Translations under genes and position numbers: made by a program | Part shown: positions 33,524 through 42,448 of the stretch, in pieces | Layout of the letters: every line of letters starts with the position of its first letter | How positions within the stretch are numbered: the first letter of the stretch is position 1 | Assembly (NCBI GenBank): GCA_965198225.1 | Contig: CBDAOY010000005.1 | Coordinates: 352,001-416,000, forward strand | Reading direction: 5' to 3' | From: Terriglobia bacterium | GTDB taxonomy: Bacteria > Acidobacteriota > Terriglobia > 20CM-2-55-15 | Length of the DNA stretch: 64,000 nucleotides | The notes under the pieces: model-generated | Told to the model about the DNA's origin: nothing | The model's database searches: none | The model's input: only the letters and a program-made list of their open reading frames with translations

Positions 33524-33875
33524 CGTTGAACCGTCATCAAGGCCACCTGCCACCGCGTCGTGGGCGTCCATTCCCGGCATTGTGCAAGCGGCTGTTTTCT
33601 ACCGAATCAGGGAAAGCGTCACCTCTGCTCAACCCGCAGGACTGGTAACCGCCGACCGACGACGACAGTCTTCTATTAAGTGGGCCGCGCCACGGTGTTC
33701 GTTATTGGGACGCCTGGTCGTGGATGCGGACAACCCACCGGTTGATCGGTCGCCCTCGTACGCTACAACCGACTGAATGTAAACGTGTTGACGGGTGTTC
33801 AACTTTGGACGACGACGTGCCTTTGAAGGGTGACTGGGAATCGACGTGCGAATAGACGAATCAGGATCGGCCTTC

Positions 33876-35070
33876 ATGCTATCGAAACAGAAATAGTCAG
33901 GCCCGGGCCGCAGGCCAAGGCACGCGATCGCCCGACGCGAGTCTTGCTCGCGGATGACCAGGCCGACGTGCTCACCGCCCTGCGACTGATGTTGAAAGCC
34001 GAGGGTTTCGAAGCGGAGGCGATCTCGGCGCCAGAGGAAATACTTCTGGCGGTGGAGAACGGAGACTTCGACTTGATCCTGATGGACATGAACTACACGC
34101 GAGACACCACGTCCGGCCTGGAAGGGCTGGAACTGCTGGCGCGGTTACAGACCCTCCCGCAGACGCCGCCGGTGGTCGTGATGACGGCATGGGGCAGCAT
34201 CGATCTGGCAGTCGAGGCGATGCGCCGCGGCGCCAGAGATTTTGTCCTCAAGCCCTGGGACAACCAGCGCCTTCTCGCCACGGTCCGGGAACATGCCCGG
34301 GGCGTAGAGCCGATTTCCAAGGACGCACGCGATCGGCAGCAGGGCGCCCGACTGGAGCGGGATCTCAAGATTGCCCGGAAGGTCCAGGGCCAATTGTTCC
34401 CCCGCAACGCACCGCCGCTGGACACTCTCGACTACAGCGCCGAATGCCGCCAGGCTGGAGCTGTCGGAGGCGACTACTACGACTTCCTGGATCTGGGGGA
34501 AGGACGGATGGCCCTGGTCCTGGCCGATGTGTCGGGCAAGGGCGTTGCCGGAGCATTGCTGATGGCCAACCTGCAGGCAACCCTGCGGAGCCAGTCGTCC
34601 AGGGGGCTCGAGGATCTCGGCGGGCTGTCGACGAAGTCAACCGCCTCTTTTACGACACGACCGCGCCCGAGCATTACGCCACGCTGGTCGTGGCGGCCTA
34701 CAACGACCGCACGCGCTCGGTTCGCTACGTCAACTGCGGTCACAATCCGCCCATGATTCTCCGCCGGAACGGTCAACTGGATCGCCTGCCCCCGACAACC
34801 ACGGTTCTTGGTCTGTTTCCGGACTTGGATGGTGACGTCGGCGAGATCACCCTCGATTCGGGAGACACCATGATCGCGTTTTCCGACGGCGTCACCGACG
34901 CGGAAAACGAGAGCGGTCAGCCCTTCGGCGAGGCGCGTTTGCTCGAACTGCTCGAAGAACACGCGCGGGAAGACATCTCTGTTCTGCCATCCCGAATCGC
35001 CGATGCGATTGAGGCCTCCGAGTTCCGCCAGGACGACGACTTGACGGTCGTCGCAGCGCGGGGCCGTTAG
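33876..35070 (+). pseudogene. Receiver + PP2C/SpoIIE (RsbU-like) phosphatase with two apparent 1-bp deletions
   Basis: LLADD...LMDMNY...KPW receiver; GGDYYD, ADVSGKG, NCGH, SDG, DDLT split over two frames at ~34627; ATG 33876 needs +1 base to give MAIETEIV. Confidence 0.8.
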
Positions 35071-35383: not shown

Positions 35384-36214
35384 GTGCCCATGCGCCGCTC
35401 CCGAACCCGGATCTGGTCGAGTGTATTCCTGACCGTTCTGTTAACTGCCCCCTGGGCCGCTGCCTTCGGACAAAGTGTCCGGTTCCAGGGGGAGCAGATC
35501 GAGCGTTTCCTGGCTGGAGCACTGATCACGGATATGGAGAGCTCCCTTCAAGGCGTGACCCGGCCACGTAAGGCGACATTGGAGCTCGACGGGACGACCC
35601 ACAACGCAGTCTTCAAGAACATCGACGTCTTCAGGCCGGGCGTGACGACTCTGGGGGGAGGGACGGTCGAGATCGACTTTCAGGACAGCTGGAAAACGGA
35701 AGTCGCCGCATATGAACTCGACAAGCTGATCGGGCTGGGCATGGTGCCGGCGACCGTTTCGAGGGTTTACTCTCGACAGCGCGGATCCATGCAATGGTGG
35801 GTCGACAGCATAATGACCGAGTACGATCGAGTGAGCCAGGGCGTGCCGGTTCCGAACGGCGAAGCCTGGAACCGGCAACTCTACAAAGTTCGGCTCTTCG
35901 ACAACCTGATCTACAACGTCGACCGGCACCTGGGCAACGTGCTGATCACAGAAGACTGGCGGGTCTGCCTGATCGATCACTCCAGGACGTTTCGCCGGCG
36001 GACCGAGTTGCGTGCGCCGGACGATCTCAAGCGGTTCTCGAGATCGTTGCTTAGGGCGATCGAGCTCCTGGACGAAGACATATTGAGGGAAACGCTCGGC
36101 GCCTACCTCACCGGCACACAGATCCGGGCGATGCTCGAAAGGCGCGACAAGATACTCGCTCTGGCAAAGGAGAGGGTGCAGGAACAGGGGCAGGAGAGAA
36201 CACTTTATCCGTAG
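35384..36214 (+). CDS. Secreted PI3K/PI4K- or Fam20-like atypical kinase (paralog 1)
   Basis: Signal peptide (..LLTAPWAAAFG/Q); GVT loop, VFK, EVAAY, DRHLGN catalytic loop, LIDH. Confidence 0.85.
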   Translation: MPMRRSRTRIWSSVFLTVLLTAPWAAAFGQSVRFQGEQIERFLAGALITDMESSLQGVTRPRKATLELDGTTHNAVFKNIDVFRPGVTTLGGGTVEIDFQDSWKTEVAAYELDKLIGLGMVPATVSRVYSRQRGSMQWWVDSIMTEYDRVSQGVPVPNGEAWNRQLYKVRLFDNLIYNVDRHLGNVLITEDWRVCLIDHSRTFRRRTELRAPDDLKRFSRSLLRAIELLDEDILRETLGAYLTGTQIRAMLERRDKILALAKERVQEQGQERTLYP

Positions 36215-36355
36215 GCCGTTGTCCGTAGGCCGTTGTCGTGGTCAGTGGTCAGCCTAAAGAAGTGCACCTCTTGCTTGCTACTCGTTAGTCGTCACTTGTC
36301 ACTCGTCACTTGTCCCTCGCCACTGACCACTTCTTCGATCTTGTCAGCCGCCACT

Positions 36356-36904
36356 CTAGCTCTTTCTCCACAAACTCGCTTCCCACCGGTCCAGGGGGGT
36401 AAACAGTACGTTTCAGGTGGCCTCGGCGGCCTGGCGGTTCAGCGCGGACCCCATCACGTGGGGTATCGAACGCATCTCTCACCCCGGGGTGGCAAACGCC
36501 GCGGCCACGATGAAGGAAACACCGAGGTGGCCCAGAATGTAGACCATCAGCGATAGAACGAGCGCCCCGAAAGGCGGTCCCCACCAATCCCAGTAGGCGA
36601 TCAGATCGAATCCCACCGCCAGGAGGGCGAGAACCAGAAGAATGATCTGGCCGCGCTGGGCCGATTCCAGTCCGAAACCCCTCCGGAAGACCGCTCCGAA
36701 GAAGAAGAAGGAAAGGACCATGCCGACCAGAAGGCTGACGGGCAGTTCCGAACCTTTCCGTAATGCGAAGAATCCTTCCCAATTCCCGAGCGTGTTCAGG
36801 AGCAGGCTCAGCACGGCCAGGCCCATCGCGAGCCGGACTCCGCGCCCGATCGGTCCGGGCCGCGGCAGCGTCCCCGCCTCGACGGTTTCGGTGACGGCCA
36901 TCAC
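36356..36904 (-). CDS. Membrane protein with two in-frame TGA codons: candidate two-Sec selenoprotein (182 aa)
   Basis: ...AAAFATPG-TGA(36479-81)-EMRSIPHVMGSALNRQAAEAT-TGA(36413-15)-NVLFTPLDRWEASLWRKS-TAG(36356-58); hairpin after each TGA. Confidence 0.7.
36372..36412 (-). promoter_or_regulatory. Putative bacterial SECIS hairpin after the second UGA
   Basis: ACU-GUUU-A-CCCCCCUG-GAC-CGGUGGG-AAGC-G-AGU; G-containing apical loop ~20 nt after UGA. Confidence 0.5.
36442..36478 (-). promoter_or_regulatory. Putative bacterial SECIS hairpin after the first UGA
   Basis: ACCCCA-CGUGA-UGGGGU; loop starts 20 nt after UGA with G at loop position 2. Confidence 0.55.
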
Positions 36905-37122
36905 TGTCTCGCCAGGTCGGTTTGTGTGCCCGAGGTCCTCTTCTCTCCGTCATCGGCGCCGGGCAATACACACCAGAACCCAGGCCGACCTCGCGCGATG
37001 CCGATCCCCCAAATGATAAGAAGCAATGGCCAGATGTAATCCCAGGCTTCGTAGGGCAACATCCCCAGATTACTCAACAGGAACACGACGCCGATGAACG
37101 CGATCAAGTAGCCGCACCACAT
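36901..37122 (-). CDS. Small DUF5668/LiaI-like membrane protein
   Basis: GYLIAFIGVVFLLSNLG...IWPLLLIIWG; GAGGAGG RBS; stop overlaps the next start. Confidence 0.8.
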   Translation of the reverse strand: MWCGYLIAFIGVVFLLSNLGMLPYEAWDYIWPLLLIIWGIGIARGRPGFWCVLPGADDGEKRTSGTQTDLARQ

Positions 37123-37180
37123 TTAAAACCTCCTCGAGAGCCGTTCGTGACCCTCGAGAACATCATAGATGGACTATTCG

Positions 37181-37251
37181 GGTGCGGGCAAAGCGCGTCG
37201 AGTGAGCGGTCGGGAAAACGATCCGAATGGAGAAAATCCGGCCCTCAACGG
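37181..37251 (-). promoter_or_regulatory. LytTR-type direct repeats
   Basis: CCGTTGA / CCATTCG / CCGCTCA / CCGCACC at 21, 21 and 22 bp spacing on the minus strand. Confidence 0.6.
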
Positions 37252-37269: not shown

Positions 37270-38025
37270 TCAGGCCCCTTCCAGCTTCTGCAGCAGTTCC
37301 TTGAGTCGTCGCCGACTCACTTCAAGCTTTGTGCCGTCCTTCAGGGTGACCTGCCCGTAGCCGCCGACGAGCGGCACGACCTCGTGCACGGCATCCAGAT
37401 TCACGATGGCCGAACGAGAGATTCTGAAAAAACTGGACGGGTCCAGCCGCCGTTCCAGGTCGAGGAGAGTCGGCTGCATCCAGAACTCGTCCTTGGAGGT
37501 ACACAGTTTCGTGAGACCTTCGTCGGAGCTGAAGTAAAAGACGTCGACGGCGGCAACCACTCGATACTTTGTGGCCCGCCTGGCCAGGAACCGCACGGCT
37601 CGCCCGGCCGGTTCGCGCGTCAGGTCTTCGACAATACGATCCGCTTCCTCCGGTGCAGCATCGCGGACCCGCTCGACGGCGCGTACGAGACGCGCCTTCG
37701 TCACGGGCTTGAGCAGGTAGTCGACAGCATGAAGATCAAACGCATCGATCGCGTACTGGTCGTAGGCCGTACAGAAGATGATCTTGGGCGCGGGCGAGGT
37801 CAGGGAGGCGGCAACCTCCAGGCCGCTCGAAACCGGCATCTGGATGTCGAGCAGGACGAGATCCGGCGTCAATTCATAGATCTTTTCCAGGGCCTCCTGC
37901 CCGTCTTCGGCCTCTCCGACGATGTCGATTCCTTCGATCGATTCCAGGAGCTGGCGCAGGCGTGCGCGGGCCGGTTGCTCGTCGTCGACGATGAGCGTGC
38001 GTGTGGCTGTCTTTGTTGACGACAC
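37270..38025 (-). CDS. LytTR family response regulator
   Basis: IVDDE, LLDIQMP, TAYDQYA, DYLLKP, FFRISRSAIVN, VSRRR. Confidence 0.95.
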   Translation of the reverse strand: MSSTKTATRTLIVDDEQPARARLRQLLESIEGIDIVGEAEDGQEALEKIYELTPDLVLLDIQMPVSSGLEVAASLTSPAPKIIFCTAYDQYAIDAFDLHAVDYLLKPVTKARLVRAVERVRDAAPEEADRIVEDLTREPAGRAVRFLARRATKYRVVAAVDVFYFSSDEGLTKLCTSKDEFWMQPTLLDLERRLDPSSFFRISRSAIVNLDAVHEVVPLVGGYGQVTLKDGTKLEVSRRRLKELLQKLEGA

Positions 38026-38026
38026 G

Positions 38027-39910
38027 TCAGGCTGTCCGAACCACCCGCTTGACGGGCATCTCAACCGAAACCACTGTCAGACCGGTGGTGGTATCGGAAC
38101 GTGCGCGAAGCAGGGCGGTGTCACCAAAGTACCCACTGAGTCGTTTCCGGATGTTGAGGAGACCATAGCCGGGGGCTGAGGACTCATCTCGTTCGGAGGG
38201 TATTTCGAAACCGGGACCATTGTCCCGAACATCGATCTGCAAACGGTCTTCCCTGAGACGCGCAGCGACCTCGATCCTGCCCGGGCCCCGGACGGCCGCA
38301 ACCCCGTGTTTGATAGCGTTCTCGACGAGCGTCTGGACGATCATCGTCGGCACCCGCGCATCCCGCACGTCGTCATCCATCTCGATCGTGAACTCGAGCC
38401 GCGGTCCGAACCGGGCCTGCTCCACTTCCAGGTAGGCTCGAAGAAACTCCATCTCGTCTTCGAGCCGGGCCCATTCCTTGTCGGAACGGCTCAAGGTGTA
38501 CCTGAAGATATCGGCGAGTCCTTCGACCGTCTCTTCAGCGCGAGCGGGATCTTTGGGAATCAACCCGGCAATCGCGTTCAGCGCGTTGAACAGGAAGTGG
38601 GGATTGATCTGGGCGCGCAGCGCCTTCAACTCGGAGCGACTGGCCTGGAGGCTCAGCTCCCGCCCGCGTCGATCTTGCTCCTGTCTGGCTTCCTGCAGGT
38701 GGACATTGTCCAGCATGGACGAAAAGACGTTGGCAAGCGAACCGAGCAGCGTCATGTCCCGCTCGAAGTACGGAATGTCGTTTCGACGCGATCCCATTCG
38801 AATCCGGCCGGCGATGCCGCCCTCCGACTCGAAGGAAACTTCTTCGACCGCTTCAAAGCTGTCCGCGGAGCGGGATTCCATCTCGACCCGGGCAGGCGCC
38901 TCGAAGACGACACCAAGCCTCTGCTGGGCCCGTTCAATGAGATCCCTCTCCGTCGTCGCTTCCTGCAGCCCTGCCAGAAAGAACTGAACGGCCTCCACGG
39001 GCTGATATCGCCGCCCCAGCCAGGCATGGTCGAGCCATTCGCCCAGCCGTTTGTGGATCCATGGCGCCGCCAGAGCCACCGGCAGGAGCGTGAGCGCATA
39101 CACCCAGACCGCGGCCCAACCCAGTTGGAGCCTTTCCACGCTCGGGAACACAAGGGCGAAATAAGAGACCAGCAGCCCGAGCACGATGAAGAGAAAGCCG
39201 CCGCGTTTGACGAAGACATCGAAGAACCCGAACCGCGAATGGTAGTACTGGCTGGCAAACAGAAAGTAGAGAGGGCAGGAACGGAGGAACACGTCCCCCT
39301 GAGAACCAAAGACATTCCAGCCGAGCACCTCGGCGACGATCAGGAGAAAGATCACCGACATCAAACCTGTAAACCACTTTCGGCTCATGCCCTCCCGACC
39401 ACCCTCTCGACCTCTGCGCGAACGACGGCTGAGATAGATCAGGAACCCGATCGCGATCATGAACTGCAGGTTCAGGATGAGTATGAGCGGCTGCATCAGC
39501 CCGCCGAGCGGGGCGCCGAAGAGCTGGAGCGAAATACCGAAGGCGAGGACGATCGCAACCAGGCTGACGACGTACACCGCACTGATGCCGTGTTTCCAGA
39601 AACCGGCGACCGTGGCTTCGTTTCCGACGTAGAGGTTGTGCATCATCGTCGGTGGGAAGAGAAAAGCGACGATCAGCAGCATCAGGTCGACCACCGGCGC
39701 GGGGCGTCCCCCCTGCTCGGCGAGGATCTCCAGAAAATTCAGACCGAACCACGCGGCACAGACCAGCAGGAAGACTCCGCCGACAAGATGTTCTGAACCG
39801 GAACAATAGGAGTGCGTATGTCGTTTCTGATGACGTTCGCTCAGCCAGAAGACAAAGAACGACAGGAAAGCCAGCGCACCGAATGTGTAGAGCAAGGTCC
39901 CGACCAGCAA
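38027..39910 (-). CDS. LytS-family multi-TM sensor histidine kinase
   Basis: LRAQINPHFLFNALN, EQARFG, VENAIKHG, DNGPG, GYGLLNI; ~9 TM helices. Confidence 0.93.
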   Translation of the reverse strand: MLVGTLLYTFGALAFLSFFVFWLSERHQKRHTHSYCSGSEHLVGGVFLLVCAAWFGLNFLEILAEQGGRPAPVVDLMLLIVAFLFPPTMMHNLYVGNEATVAGFWKHGISAVYVVSLVAIVLAFGISLQLFGAPLGGLMQPLILILNLQFMIAIGFLIYLSRRSRRGREGGREGMSRKWFTGLMSVIFLLIVAEVLGWNVFGSQGDVFLRSCPLYFLFASQYYHSRFGFFDVFVKRGGFLFIVLGLLVSYFALVFPSVERLQLGWAAVWVYALTLLPVALAAPWIHKRLGEWLDHAWLGRRYQPVEAVQFFLAGLQEATTERDLIERAQQRLGVVFEAPARVEMESRSADSFEAVEEVSFESEGGIAGRIRMGSRRNDIPYFERDMTLLGSLANVFSSMLDNVHLQEARQEQDRRGRELSLQASRSELKALRAQINPHFLFNALNAIAGLIPKDPARAEETVEGLADIFRYTLSRSDKEWARLEDEMEFLRAYLEVEQARFGPRLEFTIEMDDDVRDARVPTMIVQTLVENAIKHGVAAVRGPGRIEVAARLREDRLQIDVRDNGPGFEIPSERDESSAPGYGLLNIRKRLSGYFGDTALLRARSDTTTGLTVVSVEMPVKRVVRTA

Positions 39911-40055: not shown

Positions 40056-41342
40056 TCACGCCCGGATTTCCGAAGCAAGGATATCGATCGCCTTGTCCAG
40101 TTGACGCGGCATGATGTAGTAGGGACACGAAAAACGGATCGAAGCCTGCTCTCCGTCTCTGCCGTCGGAAATATTGAACCAGACTCGGTGCTCCTTCCAT
40201 ATTGCCTCGCCGCGAGCTCTGAGCTTCTCGATCGGTATCCGCACCTTGACCATCGCGGCCGCCAGGTCCGGCGGTGGACCGCTCATGAATGAAACGTCAC
40301 CCACTTCGTGGATCTTTCGACGGACGTAATTGGCCAGGTATTGATGCCTCTGGTGGATCGTTTCCGGACCGAGCTGTTCGGCAAACTCGATCGCGGTTTC
40401 AAGACCGGCCAGGACGGTCGTGTTCGAGGTTCCGATCGTGCTCAATCGTTCGACGCCGAGTTCGGGCCTGTCCCAATTGCTGGAGACGGTGTGTCCCCAG
40501 AGTCGGTCGGCCATTCCCTGGCGGCAATACAGAAACCCGGTACCTTTGGGAGCGAACAACCATTTGTGCGGGCTGCTGGCGTAGAAATCACAGCCGAGTG
40601 AGTGCATGTCCAGCGGCAACTGTCCCATGGCATGGGCGCCATCGATCACACTGATGATGCCGCGGTCGCGGGCCAGGCGGGATATCTCACGAACCGGCAG
40701 CATCCCCCCCGTCGACGTCGTGATGTGGCTGATGCTGATCACTTTCGTGCGGGGGGTGATCGCGTCCTCGACGGCCTGCAGGATCTCGGCGGGACTCTCA
40801 GGAGGTACAGGTATCTTGAAATAGCGCACCGCGATACCGTAGCGCTTCTCGCGCTGCAGCCACGGACTGCGCCCCCCGGGATGTTCCTGGTCGCTGAGGA
40901 GCACTTCGTCTCCGGCTTCGAGTTCCAAACCAGTCCCGACCGTGTTCATCCCCTCCGTGGCGTTCCGCGTCAGAGCGATTTCGTCGGGATCCGCACCCAC
41001 GAACGCTGCAATCTTGGTGCGCGTATTCAGCGTCGTGTTGGCATACCCCCACCACGGGTAGGTATTGAATTCGCGATCCTCGAAGCTCTCCGTGTCGTGC
41101 AGATGGCGAATCATACGATCGACGACCGGACGCGGCGATATTCCCAGGCTTCCGTTGTTGAGGTAGATCACGTCTTCGGGGTGTGAGAACTGCCCTCGCA
41201 CGACCTCCCAGAATCGCTCGTCCTGCGGCAGCGCACCGGGACGAGGCGTCGCTCCGAGCGGCTCTCCCAGTGCGCCGAGCGCTGTCGTCGCTGGGAGCGC
41301 AGTCGTCGCTCCCACCAGAGACAAAAAGTGTCGACGGTCCAT
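40056..41342 (-). CDS. Tat-exported class V PLP aminotransferase-fold protein (isopenicillin-N-epimerase-like)
   Basis: MDRRHFL Tat motif; YLNNG, NATEG, DGAH, SPHKW (PLP Lys). Confidence 0.88.
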   Translation of the reverse strand: MDRRHFLSLVGATTALPATTALGALGEPLGATPRPGALPQDERFWEVVRGQFSHPEDVIYLNNGSLGISPRPVVDRMIRHLHDTESFEDREFNTYPWWGYANTTLNTRTKIAAFVGADPDEIALTRNATEGMNTVGTGLELEAGDEVLLSDQEHPGGRSPWLQREKRYGIAVRYFKIPVPPESPAEILQAVEDAITPRTKVISISHITTSTGGMLPVREISRLARDRGIISVIDGAHAMGQLPLDMHSLGCDFYASSPHKWLFAPKGTGFLYCRQGMADRLWGHTVSSNWDRPELGVERLSTIGTSNTTVLAGLETAIEFAEQLGPETIHQRHQYLANYVRRKIHEVGDVSFMSGPPPDLAAAMVKVRIPIEKLRARGEAIWKEHRVWFNISDGRDGEQASIRFSCPYYIMPRQLDKAIDILASEIRA

Positions 41343-41556: not shown

Positions 41557-41626
41557 GCAGGCAACCGTATCTCAGTGACAGAAAAGGATGTACGGGTCGA
41601 TGTCGGCTCGCAAGGAGATCCCCTCC

Positions 41627-42448
41627 ATGAATAGTACGAACTGCCGCATGAGAACCCTACTGGCGCTTCTGGCGTTGGGCCCGATCGCCTCCTGGACCAG
41701 CGCCCAGGAGGGCGTGAAGTTCCAGGGGCCGGAGATCGAGCAGTTCATGGCCGAAGCCTCGATCACGGGGATGGTCGACATCGGAGAGGGCGTCACGCGA
41801 CCGCAGAAGGCGACGCTGGAACTTGACGGGGAAACGCAACACGGCGTTTTCAAAACCGTCGACATCTTCCGCGAAGGTATGACGAGGGTCGGCGACACCA
41901 TGGAGATGAACTTCCAGGATAGCTACAAGACCGAGATCGCGGCTTATGAAATCGATCGCCTGATCGGGCTCGGTATGGTGCCGACAACGCTGGAGAGGTC
42001 GTACCGCGGGGATATGGGATCTCTGCAATGGTGGGTCGAGAGCGAAATGTCGGAGGCCGACAGGGCACAGGGCCGCATCCTGCCGCCGGACCGCCAGAGC
42101 TGGGGTCGGATGATGTCGAAGGTCCGGCTCTTCGACAGCCTGATCTACAACACGGACCGCCATCAACGGAACATCCGGATCACGAAGGACTGGATCATCG
42201 TCCTGATCGATCATTCACGTGCCTTCCGTACCGAAAAGGAGTTGCGAGAGCCTGAGCGGATCACGCTATTCTCCAGGTCGTTGCTGGAGAATATTGCTAG
42301 ACTGGACGAAGATACGTTGAAGGACCGTGTCGGAAGGCACCTGACGATCTTTCAGATCCGAGCCGTGCTGGCCCGACGTGATCTTCTACTCGAACGAGCC
42401 AAAGAACTGGTCGCCGAACGGGGAGAGGAAAGGGTCCTTTTCCCCTGA
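41627..42448 (+). CDS. Secreted PI3K/PI4K- or Fam20-like atypical kinase (paralog 2)
   Basis: AAGGAG RBS; signal peptide MNSTNCRMRTLLALLALGPIASWTSA/Q; GEGVT, VFK, EIAAY, DRHQRN, LIDH. Confidence 0.85.
   Translation: MNSTNCRMRTLLALLALGPIASWTSAQEGVKFQGPEIEQFMAEASITGMVDIGEGVTRPQKATLELDGETQHGVFKTVDIFREGMTRVGDTMEMNFQDSYKTEIAAYEIDRLIGLGMVPTTLERSYRGDMGSLQWWVESEMSEADRAQGRILPPDRQSWGRMMSKVRLFDSLIYNTDRHQRNIRITKDWIIVLIDHSRAFRTEKELREPERITLFSRSLLENIARLDEDTLKDRVGRHLTIFQIRAVLARRDLLLERAKELVAERGEERVLFP

Follow-up and report, generated by a model that had tools for sequence, protein, structure and literature searches.

A minus-strand gene with two in-frame UGA codons in a Terriglobia genome: a probable two-selenocysteine membrane protein

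The reading frame and its two UGA codons

The DNA analysed here (the window) is a 64,000-nucleotide stretch of contig CBDAOY010000005.1 from the Terriglobia bacterium assembly GCA_965198225.1. A gene on its minus strand (36904..36356) is interrupted by two in-frame TGA codons, and comparison with related sequences makes it very probable that it is a real two-selenocysteine selenoprotein in which both UGAs are read as selenocysteine (Sec). The open reading frame (ORF) begins with GTG at 36904..36902 (alternative ATG at 36901..36899) and runs for 141 codons to ...AAAFATPG, where the first TGA is found at 36481..36479. Past this codon the same frame reads EMRSIPHVMGSALNRQAAEAT, reaches the second TGA at 36415..36413, continues as NVLFTPLDRWEASLWRKS and closes with TAG at 36358..36356. 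The read-through product has 182 residues, with the UGAs as codons 142 and 164, 22 codons apart, and tryptic digestion of its tail would yield the diagnostic peptides SIPHVMGSALNR, from the stretch that separates the UGAs, and WEASLWR, from beyond the second one (UGA2). The GTG start overlaps the TGA stop of an upstream 73-codon ORF (GTGA). An initial annotation of the window, made from its letters and a list of ORFs, had described this frame (ATPG-TGA, EMRSIPH..., second TGA, TAG), and its coordinates, peptide strings and 22-codon spacing were all exact. The features within the gene, including two hairpins resembling a selenocysteine insertion sequence (SECIS), are as follows.

36356..36904, minus strand: putative coding sequence of a two-Sec membrane protein (182 codons plus TAG), with four predicted transmembrane (TM) helices and a cytoplasmic C-terminal tail
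36479..36481, minus strand: putative Sec codon 1 (UGA, residue 142; context TPG-U-EMR), where TM4 ends, aligned with the invariant Cys142
36447..36465, minus strand: SECIS-like hairpin 1, stem ACCCCA/UGGGGU, loop CGUGA, stem-loop at 36464..36448, within codons IPHVMG
36413..36415, minus strand: putative Sec codon 2 (UGA, residue 164), aligned with the invariant Cys164
36370..36411, minus strand: SECIS-like hairpin 2, with the loop UGGACC closed by an upper stem (36399..36394 paired with 36387..36382) and a lower stem formed by the flanks; covers codons TPLDRWE and some that follow

Nine neighbouring ORFs were examined, of which seven have Pfam or NCBIfam matches and five end in TGA. Since TGA is thus a normal stop around the gene, as had been claimed for the window, the genome shows no general reassignment of this codon.

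Conservation, hairpins and selenocysteine machinery

A homologue search with the read-through protein returned 217 relatives at E <= 0.001 among 1012 candidates. The ten closest (52–99% identical) were 116–141 residues long and covered only 63–77% of the query, and the seven of these database proteins that were fetched all end in ...PG, so that the truncation by gene callers anticipated in the initial annotation was indeed present. More distant relatives (28–42% identical) were mostly 175–195 residues long, with a coverage of 91–100%. The read-through protein was aligned with 42 full-length relatives (43 members), and both TGA columns were occupied by Cys (C142 and C164) in 42/42 of them. T139, G141, E143, M144, R145, D172, W174 and E175 were likewise invariant and E161, H162 and P165 nearly so. 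The homologues do not end at TPG: conservation crosses both UGA sites and the sequence continues as TPGCEMR...EHxCP...LDRWE. The motif given in the initial annotation (TPGCEMR...C...LDxWE, with Cys at both TGA positions) was correct. As judged from the alignment, each UGA is in frame, stands opposite Cys and has conserved sequence on either side.

In 79/80 Cys-form genes fetched from named genomes the two Cys codons were 22 codons apart. A full HMMER search extended the family to 498 clusters (50% identity) at E <= 0.001, or 327 at E <= 1e-10. At least 13 clusters among the best 150 end at profile position 141 (12/12 fetched end in ...PG) and a further three of the best 150 end just before the second Cys column. 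A pattern scan gave 198 Cys-form relatives in named genomes, the hosts of which include Gemmatimonadota, Vicinamibacterales, Thermoanaerobaculia, Woeseiaceae and other Proteobacteria.

In the window's class, 400 genomes were searched and 12 of them contained a match at E <= 1e-5; all eight full-length matches (G000, which is the window's genome, G002, G003, G012, G244, G083, G036 and G250) carried exactly two in-frame TGAs, placed at the Cys columns; these full-length Sec-form genes are 38–66% identical. Matches were present in six of 401 genomes of the phylum; four were Cys-Cys forms, and two TGAs were carried by G000 and by G423, a genome from outside the window's class. A metagenome scan contributed a further two Sec-Sec genes (L131 and L133) and one Cys-Cys gene. 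Both TGAs were therefore present in 11/11 full-length Sec-form genes (the window's gene, eight genomes and two metagenome contigs), and the 22-codon spacing in 10/10 Sec-form genes tabulated (eight full-length genes and two fragments borne by insertion elements). A form with Cys at the first site and a stop at the second (Cys...UGA) occurs in G038 and in the database clusters P0235, P0247 and P0241. In a quick tree (142 columns; 76/183 inner branches unresolved, and not used to count Cys/Sec switches), one weakly supported 30-row subtree held 10/10 Sec-Sec genes used, 12/14 forms truncated at site 1 and 2/2 Cys-Sec forms, and also took in six Cys-Cys forms.

Translation of the tail was assessed over the 35 codons from the first UGA (UGA1) through LDRWE. 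The tail of the window's gene was identical to that of G002 at 27/35 positions and to that of G012 at 28/35, with ratios of non-synonymous to synonymous substitution (dN/dS) of 0.14 and 0.11, respectively, which indicate purifying selection; identity over the first 141 residues was 64.5% between G000 and G002. Over all pairs, the differences at codon positions 1/2/3 numbered 479/374/626, and none of the Sec-form genes had a frameshift or a TAA or TAG before the normal end of the family.

The window's genome (97% complete) contains SelA (440 bits), the SelB wing domain (70.8 bits), SelD (372.6 bits; G000:C9:419380-420303, L011) and tRNA-Sec (72.9 bits; anticodon TCA by ARAGORN), so that all four components sought as a check on the initial annotation were found. 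The SelD gene is interrupted within GUAGK by an in-frame TGA, after which comes an 8-bp hairpin; by its sequence, the genome's own SelD is itself a selenoprotein. SelA was found in 8/8 other Sec-form genomes and also in 2/2 Cys-form genomes of the phylum, and is consistent with Sec insertion but non-discriminating because the Cys-form genomes carry it too. A search of the window's genome for a formate dehydrogenase of the Sec type was negative. In four sequencing runs, each from a different study, contigs span 36300–36950 and have TGA, rather than TGC or TGT, at both sites. Three are identical to the window, one of these possibly being its source; the fourth contains a second strain that differs at 21 positions, 15 of them third codon positions of the frame, and both TGAs are unchanged in it. 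The TGAs are not an assembly error.

The hairpins described in the initial annotation are present after both TGAs, with G-containing loops within nucleotides (nt) 23–28 counted from the U of the UGA. The loop of hairpin 1 occupies nt 24–28. Hairpin 2 has the stem CCCCCC/GGUGGG at 36399..36382 with one C.U mismatch and a loop at nt 23–28, and its lower stems differ in register among single-sequence folds. Both upper stems were kept in 11/11 aligned sequences; in these, paired cells made up 92.2% for hairpin 1 (34–66% in slid controls) and 93.9% for hairpin 2 (39–58%). Every apical loop includes a G-containing dinucleotide, GU in hairpin 1 and GG in hairpin 2, that starts 22–23 nt after the U of the UGA. 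Stronger evidence for the hairpins was given by the comparison with Cys forms. Mean local folding energies in 30–34 nt windows were −9.5 and −11.0 kcal/mol in nine Sec forms versus −4.8 and −5.8 kcal/mol in 80 Cys forms (Mann–Whitney p about 3e-5 for each hairpin, a value that overstates independence as the Sec forms are interrelated), at a similar G+C content of the windows (0.58 versus 0.56 and 0.61 versus 0.58). At synonymous sites of hairpin 1, Sec forms used CCC for Pro in 10/10 cases (15/70 in Cys forms), CAC for His in 10/10 (18/43) and GGG for Gly in 11/11 (8/28), and in 10/11 Sec forms the same region has Val (GUG) in place of Leu; these synonymous sites are fixed in the Sec forms and not in the Cys forms.

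Several results for the hairpins weigh against this reading of the gene. The single-sequence fold z-scores were +1.13 (TGA1) and −0.40 (TGA2), neither of them significant against shuffled sequences, and among 600 control TGAs that were sampled, 14.5% were followed by a local folding energy equal to or better than that of the TGA1 window and 19.5% by one equal to or better than that of the TGA2 window. Covariation was minimal overall: in hairpin 1 one pair changed on both sides (UA three times, GC twice, AU once, five unpaired), while in hairpin 2, which did not exceed the shuffle controls, no pair did so and one position varied as G.U five times, A-U twice and C.U four times. All statistics across Sec forms overstate independence because these genes are interrelated, and conservation of the hairpins is partly protein-driven, as they overlap conserved codons (LDRWE). 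Covariation is, for its part, nearly uninformative because the stems hardly vary. A strict hairpin rule was satisfied after 45/969 ordinary TGA-terminated long frames on contigs C5 and C6 of the window's genome; TGA1 passes this rule and TGA2 fails it because of the C.U mismatch. No SECIS or other credible Rfam family was found over 36300–36560 (best score 11.7 bits; gathering score 34). Taken alone, the window's predicted hairpins are no better than chance, and the case rests on the comparison with other sequences.

Incomplete copies of the gene were also encountered. An identical 3' fragment (the last ~55 codons, with both TGAs and hairpins) is present in three copies in G056 (L021, L025 and L026) and in two in G064 (L121 and L122); at G056 locus L111, the one copy examined, it lies ~200 nt downstream of a 464-residue transposase-like ORF, and the fragment seems to travel with an insertion element. 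In G020 (L116) the gene, preceded by the LiaF-like gene, breaks off after 36 codons and a transposase-like ORF comes next, and in G001 (L115), from the same genus, only the last ~20 codons of the selenoprotein gene are recognizable. Of two nearly identical Cys-Cys copies in G464 (L141 and L137), one has a TGA at a Trp codon (WTWW to WTW-stop), which was rejected as a Sec site, this being a nonsense mutation or a sequencing error.

Topology, family and gene neighbourhoods

Hydrophobicity indicated four helices. The mean number of Lys and Arg residues over the 43 sequences was 3.4 at the N-terminus, 0.9 in loop 1, 2.4 in loop 2, 0.1 in loop 3 and 6.7 in the C-terminal tail, from which we infer by the positive-inside rule that both termini and the Cys/Sec pair are cytoplasmic and that the first Cys/Sec lies where TM4 leaves the membrane, with the second placed 22 residues on in the conserved tail (U-EMR...U...LDRWE). 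In Pfam-A the window protein matched nothing at E <= 1 except the chance-level DUF1275, XK-related and FA_desaturase, and the 43 members gave at E <= 0.01 only chance-level matches to MFS_1 (two members) and DUF389 (one member); none of the 43 matched NCBIfam. As no Pfam-A model meaningfully matches the window protein or any of the 43 members, the family name offered in the initial annotation (DUF6410-like) was without support, no separate look-up of the DUF6410 accession having been made. The MerT, MerC, MerF and MerE models of Pfam and NCBIfam matched neither the window protein nor the 43 members. A profile search of PDB sequences gave chance-level matches only (E 0.062 and 0.21), the ESM Atlas queried with a natural Cys homologue (P0014) returned unnamed clusters only, with scores of at most 0.87, and a tblastn search of 72,556 plasmids with P0053 found no match. 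Where source databases give a name it is 'hypothetical protein', except for one transporter-permease label from JGI.

On the minus strand the window's gene is the last of a series consisting of a class-V aminotransferase, a LytS-type kinase, a LytTR regulator, a promoter-like site with a 12-bp hairpin, a LiaI/LiaF-like protein and the putative selenoprotein. The elements directly upstream of the gene are listed here.

36901..37122, minus strand: LiaI/LiaF-like TM protein of 73 residues (PF18917, 37.3 bits; cut-off 27)
37131..37191, minus strand: promoter-like site followed by a 12-bp hairpin, the 3' arm of which covers the ribosome-binding site of the LiaF-like gene (from a consensus scan only)
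37270..38064, minus strand: LytTR-type response regulator (PF00072 and PF04397), linked also in G002, G003 and G012
38027..39910, minus strand: LytS-type membrane histidine kinase (PF06580 and PF02518), linked also in G002, G003 and G012

The promoter-like site and hairpin, which separate the regulator gene from the genes of the two membrane proteins, may have a regulatory role. The window's gene order recurs in G002 and G003, and in G012 the four genes are rearranged yet adjacent; the LiaI/LiaF-like gene adjoins the Sec-form gene in G002, G003, G012 and G020. The Sec forms of G036 and G038 have unrelated neighbours, and the metagenomic Sec-Sec gene L133 is followed by an ORF resembling HMA or the MerA N-terminus that is cut by the contig end. 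One Cys-form locus (L053) has a regulator-like neighbour that resembles the window's LytTR regulator.

Other genes around the operon were recorded. The class-V aminotransferase (40056–41342, minus strand), which lies directly upstream of the kinase and is also present in G002 and G003, resembles cysteine desulfurase or selenocysteine lyase, with all NCBIfam matches below their cut-offs; a link to selenium supply would be speculation. At 33830–35070 (plus strand) a response-regulator receiver and a SpoIIE/PP2C phosphatase are split over the overlapping frames 33830..34756 and 34189..35070. The matching ORF in G002 and G003 spans about 412 codons (1239 nt), and the split is an apparent frameshift or assembly error. 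Paralogous proteins of 276 and 286 residues (55% identical) flank the operon at 35384–36214 and 41588–42448 (both plus strand), their sole family signal being a weak SCO1664-family match (TIGR03843, below cut-off). Between the convergent genes, 36215–36355 contains short tandem-like repeats by eye (CCGTAGGCCGTTGT twice, GGTCAGT twice and GTCACTTGTCACTCGTCACTTGTCC-like units).

For the Cys forms, 80 loci were kept and the ORFs within 3 kb were clustered; because contig ends cut many of these loci, the following counts are lower bounds. A MerR-type metal regulator (best match TIGR02051, below its cut-off) was present at 44/80 loci. A single-linkage cluster, the representative of which matches MerT (PF02411, 44.7 bits; cut-off 32.9) and which also contains HMA-domain ORFs, was present at 29/80. 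The GDCCVxC (seleno)protein NF041374 was found at 18/80, the DF-family (seleno)protein NF049942 (representative below cut-off) at 15/80, MerB (above the Pfam cut-off) at 8/80 and thioredoxin/HMA proteins at 8/80. At least one of MerR-type, MerT-like, GDCCVxC, DF-family and MerB genes was present at 52/80 loci and two or more at 38/80. Most of these neighbours share the strand of the family gene, and in many cases stop and start codons overlap; a typical order (L027) is merR, GDCCVxC, family gene, merB and merT-like. A MerA-type cluster was present at five loci, and two of its members were scanned: that of L078 is a bona fide MerA (569.8 bits, cut-off 454; 796.8, cut-off 600) whose gene immediately precedes the family gene on its strand, and that of L090 is a shorter ORF below both cut-offs. 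By gene content, the Cys forms, which are the majority of the family, are encoded within mer-type clusters (52/80 loci), and the window's gene is not.

Two further groups of sequences were seen. Fused forms of 313–317 residues (P0075, P0083 and P0108; for example at L048 and L051) are extended at the C-terminus by a Cys- and His-rich membrane domain (C...HC...C), and no Pfam or NCBIfam domain was found in them. A distant paralogue family (RPIGR...GCEVMAFP...C...D..EE, ~160 residues; L085 1987–2469 and five other loci) occurs in mer-type clusters at 6/80 loci and matched no family model.

Interpretation and comparison with known systems

Accounts of the two UGAs other than Sec at both positions were weighed against the comparative data. 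Were UGA1 mainly a stop, the functional product would be a 141-residue four-helix protein, with the tail rarely or never made. Every public gene call does end there, and the hairpin statistics of the single sequence are unremarkable; this account is nevertheless highly improbable, as the tail equals or exceeds the body in conservation (27/35 versus 64.5% over the first 141 residues, compared with G002), shows a dN/dS of 0.11–0.14 and contains the invariant residues C142, E143, M144, R145, C164, D172, W174 and E175, and as the second in-frame TGA falls exactly at the second Cys column and is kept in 11 genes. Readout of the UGAs as Cys, Trp or another standard residue, whether by near-cognate suppression or by Cys on tRNA-Sec, would suit positions that call for a Cys-like residue. 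It is given equally little weight in view of a complete Sec system in a genome whose SelD is itself a selenoprotein, of conserved hairpins at SECIS distance after both UGAs that are missing in Cys forms, and of TGA being a normal stop in 5/9 neighbouring ORFs. A decaying pseudogene in which two Cys codons were mutated to TGA by accident needs just a single-base change from TGC or TGT at each, and broken relatives exist (the disruption by an insertion element in G020, the remnant in G001 and the TGG-to-TGA copy in G464). The same two TGAs in 11 full-length genes that are only 38–66% identical, under purifying selection and with no frameshift or other stop, make this explanation practically negligible, and the true broken copies look different, being truncated or having TGA at a Trp codon.

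With Sec at both positions, the function of the pair was considered. Binding of Hg(II) or another soft metal by the Sec/Cys pair has about an even chance of being right; metal, and mercury in particular, is favoured because the Cys forms lie in mer-type gene neighbourhoods. Facts from the window's own genome and family count against it: there are no mer genes near the window's gene, MerT (Pfam) was not found in the 97%-complete genome and no MerA scored above cut-off there (best 406 bits versus 454), and similarity to characterized transporters was undetectable in Pfam, NCBIfam and PDB-sequence searches. GDCCVxC was also not found in the genome, a result that is uninformative as its control matched nowhere. 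The competing possibility that the two Sec residues do redox or signalling work, for example as a selenol/diselenide switch acting with the LiaF-like protein and feeding or executing the LytS/LytTR output, is about half as likely. It accords with the linkage, seen in G000, G002, G003 and G012, of the gene to those of the LytS-type kinase, the LytTR regulator and the LiaF-like protein, with the lack of mer genes nearby in the window's family and with the regulator-like neighbour of the Cys form of L053; most known bacterial selenoproteins are, moreover, redox proteins according to a 2026 review (PMC13188914). It is at odds with the lack of a thioredoxin-like fold signal and of a CxxC or UxxC motif, the residues being 22 apart, and with the dominant genomic association, which is with mer-type genes (52/80 loci), MerA-type genes included. 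A diselenide is, by established selenium chemistry, also hard to reduce in the cytoplasm.

For a metal-binding protein of the inner membrane, the following working model is proposed. UGA142 and UGA164 would be decoded as Sec by SelA, SelB, SelD and tRNA-Sec, each of them under the direction of a separate short hairpin that lies within the coding sequence some 20 nt further on. Conserved Glu, His and Asp residues flank the Cys/Sec pair, which would bind Hg(II) or another thiophilic metal on the cytoplasmic side. The protein would then either work like MerT or MerC, as a small transporter that takes up the metal or hands it over, or hold the metal in a trap anchored to the membrane. Binding by selenolates would be tighter than by thiolates, so that the affinity would be higher with Sec. 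For the window's lineage, the gene neighbourhood suggests that the gene is expressed with the LiaF-like protein as an output of the LytS/LytTR system, a role proposed because of the analogy with lytSR-lrgAB. A more specific version is doubtful: a cytoplasm-facing diselenol at the mouth of the four-helix bundle might capture Hg(II) or methylmercury much more tightly than does the dithiol of the relatives in mer operons, being in this lineage uncoupled from MerA and MerR and placed under a LytS/LytTR envelope-stress system with the LiaF-like partner. If this were true, the family would be the first integral-membrane double-selenocysteine family and would represent a selenium-based defence or sensor for mercury or soft metals outside the classical mer pathway.

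The family adds to the known selenoproteins an entry missing from Pfam, NCBIfam and, as far as its available text goes, the 2026 inventory of prokaryotic selenoproteomes (PMC13188914), which lists 119 families and subfamilies and gives a domain accession for almost every one. In that text the window's family is not among the 119 and Table 1 has no four-helix membrane C-X21-C entry; the window protein matches none of the Pfam or NCBIfam models of the review, and the few cd and PTHR entries were set apart by their descriptions (soluble folds). A literature search on DUF6410 or GDCCVxC found no papers, and one on mercury or MerT selenoproteins, new selenoprotein families and Gemmatimonadota mer operons found no description of the family, the supplementary tables of deep-Sep and BSepDB lying outside this search. 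A link of selenium to mercury resistance is described as unknown in a preprint by Haft and Gwadz (2022; 10.1101/2022.07.06.499078), and the present family would link selenium use to the handling of mercury or soft metals. It is unusual on three counts, namely integral membrane location, two well separated Sec residues and an in-frame hairpin for each. Its recognition corrects a systematic annotation error by which members were ended before the Cys/Sec columns, reveals a component of mer-type operons that is widespread, though without a name, among uncultured bacteria from sediments and marine settings, and provides a natural Cys/Sec orthologue pair suited to testing the contribution of selenium to metal binding.

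Among known systems, LytSR controls the lrgAB unit. The order in the window (kinase, LytTR regulator and two small membrane proteins) is similar, but the membrane proteins are a LiaF-like protein and the putative selenoprotein instead of LrgA and LrgB. The GDCCVxC (NF041374) and DF-family (NF049942) proteins are, like the present family, little characterized and Cys-rich, with Cys and Sec versions, and are encoded beside its Cys forms, but they are neighbours and not homologues. The small inner-membrane proteins MerT (PF02411), MerC, MerF and MerE of mer operons pass Hg(II) towards the cytoplasm by means of Cys pairs. The Cys forms of the family are found in the same operons and on the same strand, beside MerR-type, MerT-like, MerB and MerA genes; the family differs from these proteins in having no sequence similarity to them and in having four helices and a 45-residue tail with C-X21-C and EMR/EH/LDRWE. 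In selenoproteins of heavy-metal systems, Sec replaces a metal-ligand Cys, some having two Sec residues, according to Table 1 of PMC13188914 and to NCBIfam names. The window's family has, in contrast to those, no NCBIfam match and is an integral membrane protein, and in place of their CU or UxxU motif its predicted Sec pair is separated by 22 residues, so that each Sec would need its own SECIS. A bacterial selenoprotein with Cys homologues is a well known kind of protein, to which the membrane location, the separated Sec pair and the link to mercury add interest.

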